Positions 18,358-63,193 of a stretch of DNA of 64,000 bases are shown here, one piece after another. The notes under the pieces are model-generated. The model saw nothing but the letters and a program-made list of their open reading frames with translations. It did not search any database and had not been told where the DNA came from. The DNA comes from Escherichia phage dhaeg. Location: the sequence record MN850609.1; one strand, given 5' to 3'. A program made the position numbers and the translations under genes. Within the stretch, counting starts at the first letter, position 1. Each line of letters begins with the position of its first letter.

Positions 18358-18386
18358 GTTTACATGGTCTATAGGCATGATACTAT
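18358..18386 (+). promoter_or_regulatory. early promoter cassette with inverted repeat ggtctatag/ctatagacc around -10
   Basis: gtttac 18358-18363, tactat 18381-18386. Confidence 0.55.
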
Positions 18387-18418
18387 AGACCTATCAACTA
18401 ATGAGTGAGGAAAATAAA

Positions 18419-18648: not shown

Positions 18649-18678
18649 GTTTACCTAAGGCTATGGTAGTGATACTAT
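18649..18678 (+). promoter_or_regulatory. early promoter cassette with inverted repeat aaggctat/atagcctt
   Basis: gtttac 18649-18654, tactat 18673-18678. Confidence 0.5.
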
Positions 18679-18704
18679 AGCCTTATCAACTTGAGGAGAA
18701 TAAA

Positions 18705-27580: not shown

Positions 27581-27684
27581 TCGAGGCTTGTGCTGACGGG
27601 TGGGATATCGTTCGATTTGGTTTTGCATGCTTTTGTTTTGGAATCGTGTTCAGCATGTGTATGAACGGTATTTTTGGAAAGTAG

Positions 27685-27713
27685 TTTACAAACTCTTAGG
27701 AGCAGAGTATAAT
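27685..27713 (+). promoter_or_regulatory. early promoter cassette (GTTTAC, 17 nt, TATAAT inside taggagca/tgctccta inverted repeat)
   Basis: gtttac 27685-27690; tataat 27708-27713. Confidence 0.55.
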
Positions 27714-27747
27714 GCTCCTACGGATTATAAAAATTGAGGAAATGACT

Positions 27748-30124: not shown

Positions 30125-30154
30125 GTTTACAACATGGTAGGACTGTGGTATAGT
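30125..30154 (+). promoter_or_regulatory. early promoter cassette with inverted repeat gtaggact/agtcctac
   Basis: gtttac 30125-30130; tatagt in loop. Confidence 0.5.
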
Positions 30155-30184
30155 AGTCCTACCGAAACAAATGAGGAAATCGAA

Positions 30185-33848: not shown

Positions 33849-33876
33849 GGTTTACTTTGGTACAGGTTGTGTTATT
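33849..33876 (+). promoter_or_regulatory. early promoter cassette with inverted repeat ggtacaggt/acctgtacc
   Basis: gtttac 33849-33854; tattat 33871-33876. Confidence 0.5.
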
Positions 33877-33919
33877 ATAGACCTGTACCAAATAATACGA
33901 AAACAAACTGGAGAATAAA

Positions 33920-58926: not shown

Positions 58927-58955
58927 AAGGGACCTTACGGTCCCTTTTATTTTTC
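58927..58955 (+). terminator. terminator after rnlB
   Basis: aagggacc-ttac-ggtccctt + TTATTTTT. Confidence 0.6.
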
Positions 58956-60227
58956 TAGTGGTGGAAGTTTAACACCGAGATAAGAACTCAACTGGCTTTG
59001 GTTAGCCATTTTGTCCATATCAGAACCATCAATAATGCGGGCTTCTTTATCGTCCTTAGCGACGGTATAAGGGTTTGCAGTCAATGCATAACGAGCAAGC
59101 AATGCTACTGTAGGTTGTAAGCTTTCTGGGTCAACAATAACCTTAAATTCACCTACTGAAGTATCACCTTCTTCATCAACCACATCCAAACCTTCCGTAT
59201 AAGGCGCATAATATAAAGATGCGACCGTCTGTCCTTCACCCATCTGAGCATTTACACCAACAATAACATAATCACATGGACTATTCATATCGGCATAAAG
59301 AGGTAGACCATTCTTTAATACACCATAAGCCAATTCATCTTGGTCTTCCTTTTTCTCAACCCAACCGGATGCAGCGAGAATAGCAGCACAACGAGAACTA
59401 GCTACGGCATAAGTCCCAGCGAAAGAAGTTTGACGTTGGACGGCAGAGTTCATCTCACACATGTAATAATATAATGTACGAGCACGGTCCTGGGCATTAT
59501 CATAACGTGGGTTAGTAAGGTCCAATACGCCCTTTTCAGAAACACCCTGGACTTTAAAACGAGAACTCACTGTAATTAATGACTGTAATACGTCCTTATT
59601 AATTTCTTCTGCCATTTGAATGCCTAGCAGATTTTCAATGAAATTAGGAGCATTAAACCCGTTTGATTCTAGGTCTTGGGCTAATTCGACTGTCAATGAA
59701 GTTTTCAGTTTACGTGATTTAACTTCAGATTGCCATTTGTCAATACGGAAGCCTGCTTCAGCAATTTCAGGATGGCCTTGTTCGAATTTAGAAGTAATAG
59801 CAGCATCTGATACCATACGAATATGCCCAGCGGCCACTGCTTCAGAAATAACTTCACCGAGGTCGGTTTCCGTGGTTCCGGCGAAAGGAGATGCTTCTAG
59901 AACTTTAAACACTACACTTTCAAACTGGAACATATCGCCGGCTGCATAAGCTGTAGACGAATCGGTAAATTCAGGAATATTTTCACGTTCCGACATACCA
60001 ATCTGGCCTGCAAATGTAGCGCCACCAAGATAAGTCATTTTGTCGTCAGGGTTAAGTACACGAACCCCGTACAGAGCAGCAACAGGTTGGCTTGTTTTTT
60101 GTTCAGCAACTAGGGCTTTAAAGATTCGTTTATTAGTTGCTTGGGTGTATGAAAGAAGAGCAGGACGGCCAACCGAGTTGGCAGCCGTCAATGTGGATTC
60201 TTTAATTAGGTCTATAATCTTAGACAT
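58947..60227 (-). CDS. gp24-like capsid vertex protein, divergent paralog
   Basis: 426 aa; same domain order as gp24/gp23 fold (..RK.LKT..TVELAQDLE.NGF.AP.F.E.LL...M..EINKD.LQSLITVS.R.KV.GVS..G..DLT) but about half identical to the adjacent copy. Confidence 0.8.
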   Translation of the reverse strand: MSKIIDLIKESTLTAANSVGRPALLSYTQATNKRIFKALVAEQKTSQPVAALYGVRVLNPDDKMTYLGGATFAGQIGMSERENIPEFTDSSTAYAAGDMFQFESVVFKVLEASPFAGTTETDLGEVISEAVAAGHIRMVSDAAITSKFEQGHPEIAEAGFRIDKWQSEVKSRKLKTSLTVELAQDLESNGFNAPNFIENLLGIQMAEEINKDVLQSLITVSSRFKVQGVSEKGVLDLTNPRYDNAQDRARTLYYYMCEMNSAVQRQTSFAGTYAVASSRCAAILAASGWVEKKEDQDELAYGVLKNGLPLYADMNSPCDYVIVGVNAQMGEGQTVASLYYAPYTEGLDVVDEEGDTSVGEFKVIVDPESLQPTVALLARYALTANPYTVAKDDKEARIIDGSDMDKMANQSQLSSYLGVKLPPLEK

Positions 60228-61510
60228 TAATCAGCCTCGTAAATAATTGCTGGAAGTTTAACACCAAGCAGATAAGACATATTACTCTGACCAGCCATTA
60301 AATCCATATTGGTTGCATCGATAACACGAGCTTCTTTATCGTCTTTAGCTACGGTGTACGGGTTAGCGGACAGTGCATAACGAACCATCAGAGAAATAGA
60401 AGGCTGTAATGAATCCGGGTCGACAATAACCTTATAAGCACCAACGTGTTCTTGGTCGTCTAAATCCAGGCCTTCTGTATATGGGGCATAGAAAATAGAA
60501 CCGACAACTTCATTACCACCATAGTTCTCTTTAACACCTACGATAACATAATCCAATGGGCTGTTAACGTCACAGAACAGAGGTAATCCATTCAACAAAT
60601 AACCATAGGCCGTTTCTGGGAGCCAATTATTATCTTCAGGTCTATGTTTTAACCAGCCAGAACCTGCAAGCATTGCAGCCACACGACTTGAAGCCACAAC
60701 AAACGTACCCGAATAAGAAGTAGTTTTCTGGATTTCAGAATTCATCTCACAAACAATTTCATAAAGTTTACGTGCAGATTCTGGAGCACTATCATAAGTC
60801 AAATCGATGATGCCATTATCAGATACACCCGTAACTTTATAGCGTTTGGATACGGTTATTAGAGATTGCAGAACATCTTTATTAATTTCATCTGCCATTA
60901 CTGTAGCCAGGAGGTCTTCTAAGAATGCAGGGGCGTCGAAGCCATTTGATTCCATATCCTGTGCTAATTCTACGGTCAAAGCAGTCTTCAATTTACGGGT
61001 CTTAACAGGGGCATTCCATTTATTAACCTGGAATACAGCATCAGAGATTTCTACATCACTCTCTTCAAATTTAGTGGTATGGGCTGCATCAGGAACCAAA
61101 CGACACGTTAATGACACCAAACCTTCTTGAAGAGCATCGGCCAATTCTGTAGCGCTAGTGGATGCGAGTGGGCTTGCTTGAAGAGCCTTATAAACCACAT
61201 TCTGATACTTAAAGTAGTCACCCTTGGCAATCGCCTGGGCTTTATCTGTGAGTTCCGGGATAGTTTCACGGTCTTTAGAACCAACTTCACCACCATAAAC
61301 TGCACCGGTTTGGAAACTGAATTCATTATCAGGGGTAAGATATTTGACACCATACAACGCAGCGATAGGTTGGTTTGTACGTTGTTCAGCGATGATATCG
61401 CGATAAATTAGTTTAGTGGTAGCACGGGTCAAAGCAACAAGATTAGGGCGACCCAATGAGTTGCTGGTAGTAGTTGTTGACTCGCGCAGTAATTCGTTAA
61501 TCTTTGCCAT
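60227..61510 (-). CDS. 24: gp24 capsid vertex protein
   Basis: 427 aa, same as T4 gp24; MAKINELLRESTTT.SNS.GRPNLVALTRATTKLIY.DI.A.QRTNQP.AA.YG.KYL.PDNEF. Confidence 0.92.
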   Translation of the reverse strand: MAKINELLRESTTTTSNSLGRPNLVALTRATTKLIYRDIIAEQRTNQPIAALYGVKYLTPDNEFSFQTGAVYGGEVGSKDRETIPELTDKAQAIAKGDYFKYQNVVYKALQASPLASTSATELADALQEGLVSLTCRLVPDAAHTTKFEESDVEISDAVFQVNKWNAPVKTRKLKTALTVELAQDMESNGFDAPAFLEDLLATVMADEINKDVLQSLITVSKRYKVTGVSDNGIIDLTYDSAPESARKLYEIVCEMNSEIQKTTSYSGTFVVASSRVAAMLAGSGWLKHRPEDNNWLPETAYGYLLNGLPLFCDVNSPLDYVIVGVKENYGGNEVVGSIFYAPYTEGLDLDDQEHVGAYKVIVDPDSLQPSISLMVRYALSANPYTVAKDDKEARVIDATNMDLMAGQSNMSYLLGVKLPAIIYEAD

Positions 61511-61538
61511 TGCGCTTTCCTTATTGAGGGTATATGTT

Positions 61539-61546
61539 TATTTATA
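61539..61546 (-). promoter_or_regulatory. late promoter TATAAATA for gene 24
   Basis: tatttata on plus strand, about 29 nt upstream of gp24 ATG. Confidence 0.55.
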
Positions 61547-61600
61547 AAAGTTGTTTACAGCAAGGTTCCCACGTGTTACTATAGTACAGAAACAAGAATG

Positions 61601-61618
61601 GGAGACCGAAGTCTCCCA
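61601..61618 (-). terminator. hairpin after gene 23 (gggagaCTTCGGtctccc on minus strand)
   Basis: perfect 7-bp stem with UUCG loop, followed on minus strand by T-rich attcttgtttct. Confidence 0.5.
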
Positions 61619-61633
61619 TAATAAGGTTAGGTC

Positions 61634-63193
61634 TTAGATACCTTTAACATAAACGCGACGGAAGTAACCATTCAGACCGAGGCTGTTAACGATGTCCGGC
61701 ATACCATTCTGAATACGTTTGGTAGGTGCCTGAGCAGCTGGGTCAGCGAACGGGTTAATACCGATACCGTAACGAGTTTTGAAGCCCATTACCGGCTGGA
61801 AGTTCTTCGGATCGGAACCGCGCAGTGGGGTCAGTGCAACGTAAGGGGCGTAGTAGATACCTGCGTCCATTTCGTTGGAACCTTTATAACCGATGGTGAA
61901 GTAATCAGCACGGGCATACTGGTCGATGTAAACGCGATATTTACCACCAAGAACACCGGCAAATACTGCTTTAGTGGTGTCAACGTTGAAACCTTGACCC
62001 AGACCTTGAGCTGCATAACTTACAGAAGTATCAACTGCAGCCAGTACGTTAACTACGTTACGGGAAGCGATGATGAAGTTACCAGCACCACGACCGGTCT
62101 GACGAGCGATTTCGGCTGCTTCTTTATCAATCTGGAACAGAAGGGCTTTAAAGCTCTCACCGGCCCAACGAGCACCACGGATATCGATCGGGTCCTGGAA
62201 GTCAAACACACCAGCTTTAGCGCCAACGGTGTTGGTCATACCAGATTTACCAACCTGTGCAGAGTAGTTAATCCAATCAATAACTTCACGGTTGATTTCG
62301 AGCATAATTTCGGTAGCAAGGATACCGGACAGTTCAGCATCTGCATCCATACCGTGTACTGCACGAAGGTCCTGTGCCAGTTCGATGGAGTAACTTGCTT
62401 TCAGCTGACGGGATTTAGCTTCGATAACTTGTTTATCGATACGGAAGCCCATTTCGTTCCACGGGTTGTCCTGAGAACCGTTAAAGCCTTCCTGAAGTTC
62501 AGCGATAGAAGTAGCCATACCTTCAGCCAATTCAGCCAGCTGACCAGCTTCCAACAGAGAGGTTACGGCAACATCCAGTTTAGCAGCATCGGTAGCAGCA
62601 GCATCAACGGTTACGGCTTCAACAGCCTGGAAGTGTGCAGAACCGGTAGCTTCGAAGAAGTGAGAATAAATTTTACCAACTTCCAGAACTTTACCTGCAG
62701 CCAGTGCTTCAAAAGTCTGAGCAGCACCCTGACCAGAGAACATAGCATTCGGAGCATACATCGGGTGGAAAGCTTCTTTAGCGCCAGCAGCGATAGGGTC
62801 TTTACCGTATACTGCGCGCAGTGCAAATACCTGGCCGGTAGGGTTATTCAGAGGCTGAACACCACAAATATCAAAAGCAATCAGATGAGGAATAGCACGA
62901 CGAACCATACCCATTACTGCCGGCCCAATCTGAGTTACAGCACCAGAGGTCTGGCCAGCTGCGATATTGGTAGCATCATAACCGTGGTCACCACCGATTT
63001 CAGCTTCAGTCAGGAAAGAACCAAATGCTTCGGAGATTTTTTCGTCACGATATTCAGGAGCGGTCAGAATATCTTGTTCCTGGTTTTCAAAGATTTTAGC
63101 GATGATAGCTTGTTTAGAAGCACCAACGATTTCAGGAAGAGCTTCGTTTTCCAGCAGAGCGGACCATTTTTGTACTAATGCATTCTTTTTCAT
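61634..63193 (-). CDS. 23: major capsid protein gp23
   Basis: 519 aa; very high identity to T4 gp23 along its whole length (e.g. AIIAKIFENQE, DHGY.ATNIAAGQTSGAVTQIGPAVMGMVRRAIP.LIAFDICGVQP, C-terminal FRRVYVKGI). Confidence 0.98.
   Translation of the reverse strand: MKKNALVQKWSALLENEALPEIVGASKQAIIAKIFENQEQDILTAPEYRDEKISEAFGSFLTEAEIGGDHGYDATNIAAGQTSGAVTQIGPAVMGMVRRAIPHLIAFDICGVQPLNNPTGQVFALRAVYGKDPIAAGAKEAFHPMYAPNAMFSGQGAAQTFEALAAGKVLEVGKIYSHFFEATGSAHFQAVEAVTVDAAATDAAKLDVAVTSLLEAGQLAELAEGMATSIAELQEGFNGSQDNPWNEMGFRIDKQVIEAKSRQLKASYSIELAQDLRAVHGMDADAELSGILATEIMLEINREVIDWINYSAQVGKSGMTNTVGAKAGVFDFQDPIDIRGARWAGESFKALLFQIDKEAAEIARQTGRGAGNFIIASRNVVNVLAAVDTSVSYAAQGLGQGFNVDTTKAVFAGVLGGKYRVYIDQYARADYFTIGYKGSNEMDAGIYYAPYVALTPLRGSDPKNFQPVMGFKTRYGIGINPFADPAAQAPTKRIQNGMPDIVNSLGLNGYFRRVYVKGI

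Follow-up and report, generated by a model that had tools for sequence, protein, structure and literature searches.

The window analysed here is a 64,000-nt stretch of Escherichia phage dhaeg (MN850609.1), and over the region tested its sequence matches that of Escherichia phage CLB_P2 (Dhakavirus, Tevenvirinae) at 100% identity. The site under study lies on the plus strand in a 123-bp spacer (61511-61633) between gp24 and gp23, two late genes that are both encoded on the minus strand (Table 1). The gp24 gene bordering this spacer is one of two tandem gp24-like capsid vertex genes on the minus strand (58947-60227, 426 aa, and 60227-61510, 427 aa) of which the stop and start overlap. JS10 is annotated likewise, and tandem gp24-like genes are a known feature of JS98-like phages.

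Table 1. Features in and around the spacer between gp24 and gp23 (positions of the window)
Feature	Positions	Strand	Basis
Gene for the capsid vertex protein gp24 (427 aa); late gene behind the minus-strand late promoter TATAAATA	60227-61510	-	ORF list; annotated so in CLB_P2 and JS10
T4-type late promoter TATAAATA, facing gene 24	61546-61539	-	sequence; function inferred from the T4 late-promoter consensus
Gap of 6 bp, late promoter to -35	61547-61552		
Orphan early-type promoter, -35 element GTTTAC	61553-61558	+	sequence, promoter-family matrix
18-nt spacer, ending in TGT	61559-61576	+	
TGn extended -10 (TGT)	61574-61576	+	sequence; generic sigma-70 scan
-10 hexamer TACTAT	61577-61582	+	
TACTATAG, motif of the first-pass annotation	61577-61584	+	
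Deletion junction, single ATAG remaining from the two JS10 copies	61581-61584		sequence and JS10 alignment
Predicted transcription start, 6-8 nt past the -10 hexamer	61588-61590	+	inferred from sigma-70 geometry
Perfect 9-bp G+C-rich hairpin	61598-61606/61611-61619	both, read differently	
gp23, major capsid protein gene (519 aa)	61634-63193	-	ORF list, annotation

All motifs that the first-pass annotation had placed here, namely GTTTAC, an 18-nt spacer, TACTATAG and the late-promoter element TATAAATA, were confirmed by sequence at the positions given. Its description of the early and late promoters as overlapping needs adjustment, as the two cores are adjacent and arranged back to back, with TATAAATA located 6 bp upstream of the -35 element, in the position of an UP element. 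At the sequence level, the A/T-rich tract GTATATGTTTATTTATAAAAGTT at 61530-61552 corresponds to this UP-element region (about -40 to -60) and also contains the gene 24 late promoter, which is part of a block (TATTTATAAA) conserved in JS10, JS98, G28, mobillu, VR25, T4 and RB32. The -35 element, read either as GTTTAC or as TTTACA (61554-61559), is close to (G)TTTAC(A)/TTGACA, the spacing amounts to 18 nt from GTTTAC or 17 nt from TTTACA, the -10 hexamer fits TAnnnT and TGT provides the extended -10. T4 early promoters, which belong to the sigma-70 class, are built from the same UP, -35, TGn and -10 elements (Hinton 2010, PMC2988021). The resemblance of the site to these promoters thus comprises the GTTTAC-type -35, the 17/18-nt spacer, TGn, TAnnnT, the A/T-rich upstream tract and the position on the early-gene strand, and extends to its sister sites in the window, which drive homologues of motA and alc. 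It differs in having neither a gene nor a ribosome-binding site behind it, and in having lost the start block AGACCTATCAAC that the Dhakavirus family favours together with TACTAT.

We evaluated whether the match could be a chance one without biological meaning. A generic sigma-70 scan does list the site (TTTACA-17-TACTAT, 9/12, TG present), and it is here that a chance reading finds its support: sites scoring 9/12 are no commoner in this region than in shuffled sequence (12 found versus 12.1 expected). Because its site count equals chance, such a scan cannot validate a promoter, hence a family-specific matrix was used, constructed from 11 other early promoters of the window with the site under study left out. 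On this matrix the site scores 19.3 bits, a level reached by only 0.01 sites per simulation in 100 Markov simulations of 64 kb. When only the core elements are considered, it scores 23.5 bits, equal to the gene-bearing copy of JS10, and scores of at least 16 bits are found at only 14 positions of the window. The plus strand holds 15 copies of GTTTAC-N16-19-TAnnnT and the minus strand a single one, and TACTATAG occurs 9 times compared to 2.4 expected, a count that none of 100 shuffles attained. Strong members of this family have UP-like A tracts, GTTTAC, TGn, TACTAT or TATAAT and the start block AGACCTATCAAC in common, and family promoters lie 20-35 nt upstream of genes with a strong Shine-Dalgarno sequence and ATG, some of which are homologous to motA and alc, early genes of T4.

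Conservation points in the same direction. The -35 element as (G/A)TTTAC, the 18-nt spacing and the -10 element are kept across eight relatives from four genera, although the letters of the spacer vary (JS10 AGCAAGGTTCCCACGTGT, AnYang ACACAAAAAGCGTCGTGT, mobillu AACGTATTTGGTATGTGA), and a downstream gene with its own ribosome-binding site is present in all eight (JS10, JS98, WG01, AnYang, G28, mobillu, VR25 and T4). Kept hexamers around a diverging spacer are the pattern that would be expected of a working promoter. Judged by these sequence features, 61553-61582 is a genuine member of the sigma-70-type early promoter family of the phage. A chance origin is effectively refuted by the family-matrix and core scores, and we regard its probability as negligible.

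Despite this intact core, nothing appears to be encoded behind the promoter, and the term orphan chosen in the first-pass annotation is therefore appropriate. Within 250 nt downstream on the plus strand, no Shine-Dalgarno sequence followed by a start codon was found, nor any plus-strand ORF with a ribosome-binding site, only antisense-frame artefacts. As had also been stated, the sole sequence downstream is antisense to gp23. The frame that is antisense to gp23 and aligned with its codons (61634-63193, plus strand) is free of stops over 514 codons in both CLB_P2 and JS10, compared to only 144 in T4. We do not take this open frame for a gene, and read it instead as a sign that gp23, being highly expressed, avoids the codons TTA, CTA and TCA almost entirely. 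Two candidate ORFs were considered and rejected: a 394-aa ORF starting with TTG at 61994-63178 (plus strand, antisense to gp23), as an artefact of codon usage, and an ATG micro-ORF of 7 codons in the hairpin (61598-61621), which lacks a Shine-Dalgarno sequence and corresponds to 3' UTR of an ORF in relatives. An Rfam search of 61450-61900 returned no known RNA family, and no structure was seen beyond the terminator hairpin. The best Rfam match, PhrS on this hairpin, was below threshold (15.7 bits versus a gathering score of 37). With regard to Rho utilisation, the downstream plus strand has a C/G ratio of 0.83-0.96 and no C-rich, G-poor tract.

The hairpin between the promoter and gene 23 reads differently on the two strands. 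On the late (minus) strand it has a C(UUCG)G loop followed by the U-rich tail TCTTGTTTCT, and it acts as terminator or stabiliser of the gene 23 message; the equivalent hairpin is annotated as a terminator in phage G28. On the plus strand the loop is CGAA and there is no U tract. The best fold of 61588-61650 has a free energy of -17.5 kcal/mol. In relatives this hairpin is at the same time the 3' end of an 88-aa ORF. Separately, we observed that 61519-61530 matches the complement of 61615-61626 at 10 of 12 positions. Read on the late strand, the first of these arms is the Shine-Dalgarno region of gene 24, and the second overlaps the terminator hairpin of gene 23 on its 5' side. If the arms paired in a transcript that reads through from gene 23 into gene 24, the ribosome-binding site of the latter could be masked, although the complementarity could well be chance.

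Comparison with JS10 reveals what is missing behind the promoter. Both phages are identical from the gp24 start codon through GTGTTACTATAG (100% across the promoter). Beyond the promoter, JS10 continues with ACCTATCAAAACATGAGGAGATTAAAAATG and then an 88-aa plus-strand ORF, preceded by GAGGAG at 7 nt from the ATG, which ends in GCA TAG (last codon and stop) and is followed by the hairpin context TACAGAAACAAGAATGGGAG / TACAGAAACAAGAATGGGAGACCGAAGTCTCCC as in CLB_P2. The intergenic spacer thus measures 417 bp in JS10 versus 123 bp in CLB_P2, exactly 294 bp being missing, and the same holds for dhabil, a near-twin of CLB_P2. In JS10 the missing segment is bounded by two copies of ATAG (locus L001, 1780-1783 and 2074-2077), one at the 3' edge of the -10 region and the other consisting of the TAG stop together with the third base of the codon before it. 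What was deleted comprises the conserved start block and the entire ORF with its ribosome-binding site, whereas -35, spacer, TGn and -10 were all retained, so that an intact promoter core is now fused 15 bp upstream of the hairpin.

At the junction, the discriminator and start region was changed from AGACCTATCAA to AGTACAGAAAC. The lost block is conserved across the strongest family members, and its loss might matter for initiation. This is reflected in the whole-matrix score, which is 36.1 bits for the intact JS10 promoter versus 19.3 bits for the orphan at equal core scores, indicating that the deletion removed the conserved +1 block of the family. Two further consequences of the deletion were observed. 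The junction creates a 10-bp palindrome (TACTATAGTA, 61577-61586), so TACTATAG is readable on the minus strand (61586-61579) as well, and the distance between the complementary arms 61519-61530 and 61615-61626 is reduced from 378 to 84 nt.

The lost ORF belongs to phrog_6003, of unknown function in PHROGs, and a Pfam search with the 88-aa sequence yielded nothing significant. No relocated copy was found by tblastn in the whole 171,787-bp CLBP2 genome (best E-value 0.69): the gene was lost, not moved. Among other phages it is widespread, with 120 records containing the ORF by tblastn, from Dhakavirus, Mosigvirus, Gaprivervirus and one Tequatrovirus. We examined the loci of the Dhakavirus phages JS10, JS98, WG01 and AnYang, Tequatrovirus G28, Mosigvirus mobillu and Gaprivervirus VR25, and in each of them the ORF occupies the same slot on the same strand with the promoter at the same position. 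Conversely, the allele in which promoter and hairpin are contiguous is restricted to two CLB_P2 records and dhabil. Exact matches in IMG/VR numbered 0 for the gene-less and 5 for the intact allele. The comparison with related phages that the first-pass annotation had proposed thus shows the promoter in eight relatives and the gene-less form in CLB_P2 and dhabil only. As these are independent, nearly identical isolates, from sewage water (CLB_P2) and Danish wastewater (dhabil), the gene-less allele is not an artefact.

The direction of the change follows from the flanking capsid genes. These are 97.6/97.8% identical between CLB_P2 and JS10, compared to 93.0/94.5% between JS10 and JS98, which both carry the ORF. 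Since the flanks of CLB_P2 are closer to those of JS10 than the latter are to those of JS98, CLB_P2 is nested among ORF-bearing phages. Together with the ORF-bearing relatives and the restricted gene-less allele, this nesting identifies the gene-less state as a recent, derived deletion. The ancestral role of the promoter, still seen in nearly all extant relatives, was to drive the 88-aa counter-strand gene, which lay between the head genes 24 and 23 and had its end at the hairpin of gene 23. The simplest route to the deletion would be slippage, or else illegitimate recombination, at the short 4-bp microhomology. We conclude that the orphan early promoter is a scar of the 294-bp deletion of a small early gene, a leftover without a dedicated function, with an estimated probability of roughly 0.86. 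Of the two possibilities put forward in the first-pass annotation, the relic of a lost early gene is accordingly strongly supported by the relatives with an 88-aa ORF behind a promoter at the same position, the precise ATAG/ATAG ends and the nested gene-less clade.

The slot between genes 24 and 23 is known for more than this single ORF, and its history has to be taken into account when weighing the opposite polarity, in which the contiguous promoter and hairpin would be ancestral and the 88-aa ORF inserted later behind an existing promoter. Cassette traffic through the slot lends this some plausibility: T4 carries segD, mobillu the ORF together with a homing endonuclease, and RB32 nothing. 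Moreover, JS98 and Tequatrovirus G28 have a near-identical cassette between flanks that are only 67-80% identical. Still, insertion is highly unlikely to explain the CLB_P2 allele, which is nested with that of dhabil inside ORF-bearing Dhakavirus and lacks the conserved +1 block present in the intact allele. A promoter without cargo is furthermore an improbable long-lived ancestor, and truly empty slots such as that of RB32 have no promoter either.

With regard to this traffic, the whole 24-23 cassette, consisting of the late and early promoters, the 88-aa ORF and the hairpin, is nearly identical in G28 (locus L010, 366-800) and JS98 (locus L011). The 67-80% identity quoted above applies to the gp24 and gp23 sequences that flank it in G28 and in Dhakavirus phages, and cassette identity versus divergent flanks points to a probable recent exchange between genera. 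Over its first 72 residues, the mobillu ORF shows 100% identity to that of JS10, and the homing endonuclease comes next. In most Tequatroviruses, e.g. RB32, the slot measures 83 bp and lacks an early promoter, its sole contents being the late promoter and the hairpin. Empty slots of this type together with the varied cargo imply that the slot gains and loses whole cassettes, and CLB_P2 is unusual only in having lost its cargo while keeping the promoter.

The T4 gene in this slot, segD, likewise lies on the counter-strand and has the same kind of hairpin at its end. Upstream of segD, in a back-to-back arrangement with the late promoter of gene 24, we found ATTTAC-N18-TATTAT preceded by TGa, with a core score of 24.2 bits. 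This T4 candidate (locus L008 from NC_000866, 2733-2800, minus strand, about 107,233-107,300 of the record) is positionally homologous to the 61553 site. No promoter features are annotated in the T4 GenBank records examined, and according to a review, bioinformatic searches gave no segD-specific promoter and segD transcripts were supposed to be vanishingly low (PMC2988022). In time-resolved T4 omics data, segD is classified as 'early RNA, middle protein' and its protein was detected (PMC9697503 supplements). Early segD RNA fits an early promoter at this position, read-through from upstream early genes also being possible. The CLB_P2 site and the segD locus thus have in common the slot, the counter-strand orientation, a late promoter of gene 24 placed back to back and a hairpin of the same kind at the other end, and differ in that the T4 cargo is a GIY-YIG homing endonuclease and not the 88-aa ORF.

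A further known type of cassette in T4-like phages is the promoter-early stem-loop (PeSL), of which degraded 'half' forms have been described near indels (Arbiol 2010, PMC2839356; Comeau 2014, PMC4122927) and for which deletions at short chance homologies have been invoked by the authors to explain single-PeSL cases (PMC4122927). The CLB_P2 site resembles these in its parts, an early promoter and a stem-loop on either side of a small variable ORF, and in that loss of the ORF leaves part of the cassette behind. The Shine-Dalgarno sequence and start codon of such an ORF are absent in CLB_P2 and present in its relatives. However, the canonical stem-loop lies just upstream of the promoter, whereas the hairpin is here downstream and belongs to gene 23: no hairpin was found in 61511-61552, where the late promoter of gene 24 is the sole upstream element, and a strong hairpin is present only at 61598-61619. 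Furthermore, canonical recombination takes place between two homologous PeSLs, with excision of a mini-circle, whereas the ends are here 4-bp ATAG repeats without a second promoter copy, and the site resides within the conserved head-gene module and not in a hyperplastic region. By this layout, the CLB_P2 site is not a canonical PeSL.

A different kind of stem-loop was observed at other promoters of the window. About half of the strong early promoters contain a perfect inverted repeat of 7-12 bp of which the arms bracket the -10 hexamer (18358-18400, 18649-18690, 27684-27725, 30125-30165, 33850-33895 and 2391-2430), the spacer containing the 5' arm, and the 3' arm being located at about +1 to +10. 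The arms differ in sequence among promoters while their complementarity is kept (e.g. GGTCTATAG/CTATAGACC, TAAGGCTAT/ATAGCCTTA, GGTAGGACT/AGTCCTACC and TTTGGTACAGGT/ACCTGTACCAAA). In random 40-nt segments, inverted repeats of at least 7 bp occur in 2.5% and of at least 9 bp in 0.33%. Both arms are only contained in RNA that reads through from upstream, and these promoter-overlapping repeats may be the Dhakavirus version of the PeSL stem-loop. The 61553 site has no such bracketing repeat.

What the orphan promoter does at present can be addressed from its parts. Because all core elements are intact, host RNA polymerase would be expected to still initiate around 61588-61590 in the first minutes of infection. 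The resulting RNA would carry the hairpin 8-10 nt from its 5' end and, since no U tract follows this hairpin on the plus strand, would read for some distance into the antisense of the gene 23 3' end, after which Rho-dependent or other termination and decay would follow. The orphan promoter thus probably still fires early, giving a short or a read-through anti-gene-23 RNA. The same read-through would be possible behind the ORF of the gene-bearing relatives, so it would not be special to CLB_P2, and the RNA would be a by-product without a dedicated function.

The other possibility raised in the first-pass annotation was that such an early antisense RNA keeps the late capsid messages silent, i.e. 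that the promoter was kept or exapted as a functional regulator whose RNA, directed against the 3' end of the gene 23 mRNA, delays or dampens capsid expression. The intact core and the plausible read-through in the absence of a plus-strand U tract are compatible with this, and precedents exist in T4. 'Anti-late' RNA was reported for this phage in the 1970s. Antisense transcription has also been described at T4 gene 32 (Belin et al. 1987, as cited in PMC2988021), and plus-strand transcription from the 61553 site would likewise be complementary to a late message; a difference is that the gene-less arrangement is not conserved. Conservation, as would be expected of a cis-antisense RNA, was not found: the gene-less arrangement is a derived deletion confined to one lineage (CLB_P2 and dhabil), the promoter has ordinary coding cargo behind it in relatives, and many T4-like phages, e.g. 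RB32, manage with an 83-bp slot without an early promoter, which argues against a conserved need. The lack of an Rfam family and of structure past the terminator hairpin likewise speaks against a dedicated RNA. In T4, early promoters are silenced within minutes, whereas late mRNA, which can only be made with gp55/gp33 and the loaded replication clamp, appears later, such that early and late RNAs overlap little in time. An antisense brake would therefore be neither needed nor well timed. Altogether, the silencing of late capsid messages finds no support, the arrangement being a lineage-specific accident and RB32-type phages lacking the promoter entirely, and we consider a regulatory antisense RNA very unlikely.

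A broader variant does not depend on the deletion. The early promoter of the 24-23 slot, in several Tevenvirinae genera and including that of T4 segD, might routinely read through the gene 23 hairpin and give rise to an early anti-capsid RNA, which would then be the sole product in CLB_P2. We give this little credence; if true, CLB_P2 would be a natural test case for the effect of 'anti-late' RNA on capsid expression or for head-on transcription conflicts.

Taken as the scar of a deleted early gene, the orphan promoter is an ordinary product of phage genome evolution. This kind of event is already known in T4-like genomes and the finding in itself matters little, yet it is a clean and datable case of a T4-like phage shedding a small accessory gene with the signals left behind, and it cautions that an orphan promoter facing late genes need not be functional. 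At the level of the family, the 24-23 slot emerges as the site of an early and a late promoter that diverge in a conserved pair, with a cargo that can be exchanged, being either the 88-aa ORF, this ORF with a homing endonuclease, or segD, and T4 turns out to have a good candidate for an early-type promoter upstream of a gene for which a review had reported none. Finally, CLB_P2 and JS10 form a natural near-isogenic pair with which the function of phrog_6003 and the cost of early transcription into gene 23 could be studied.
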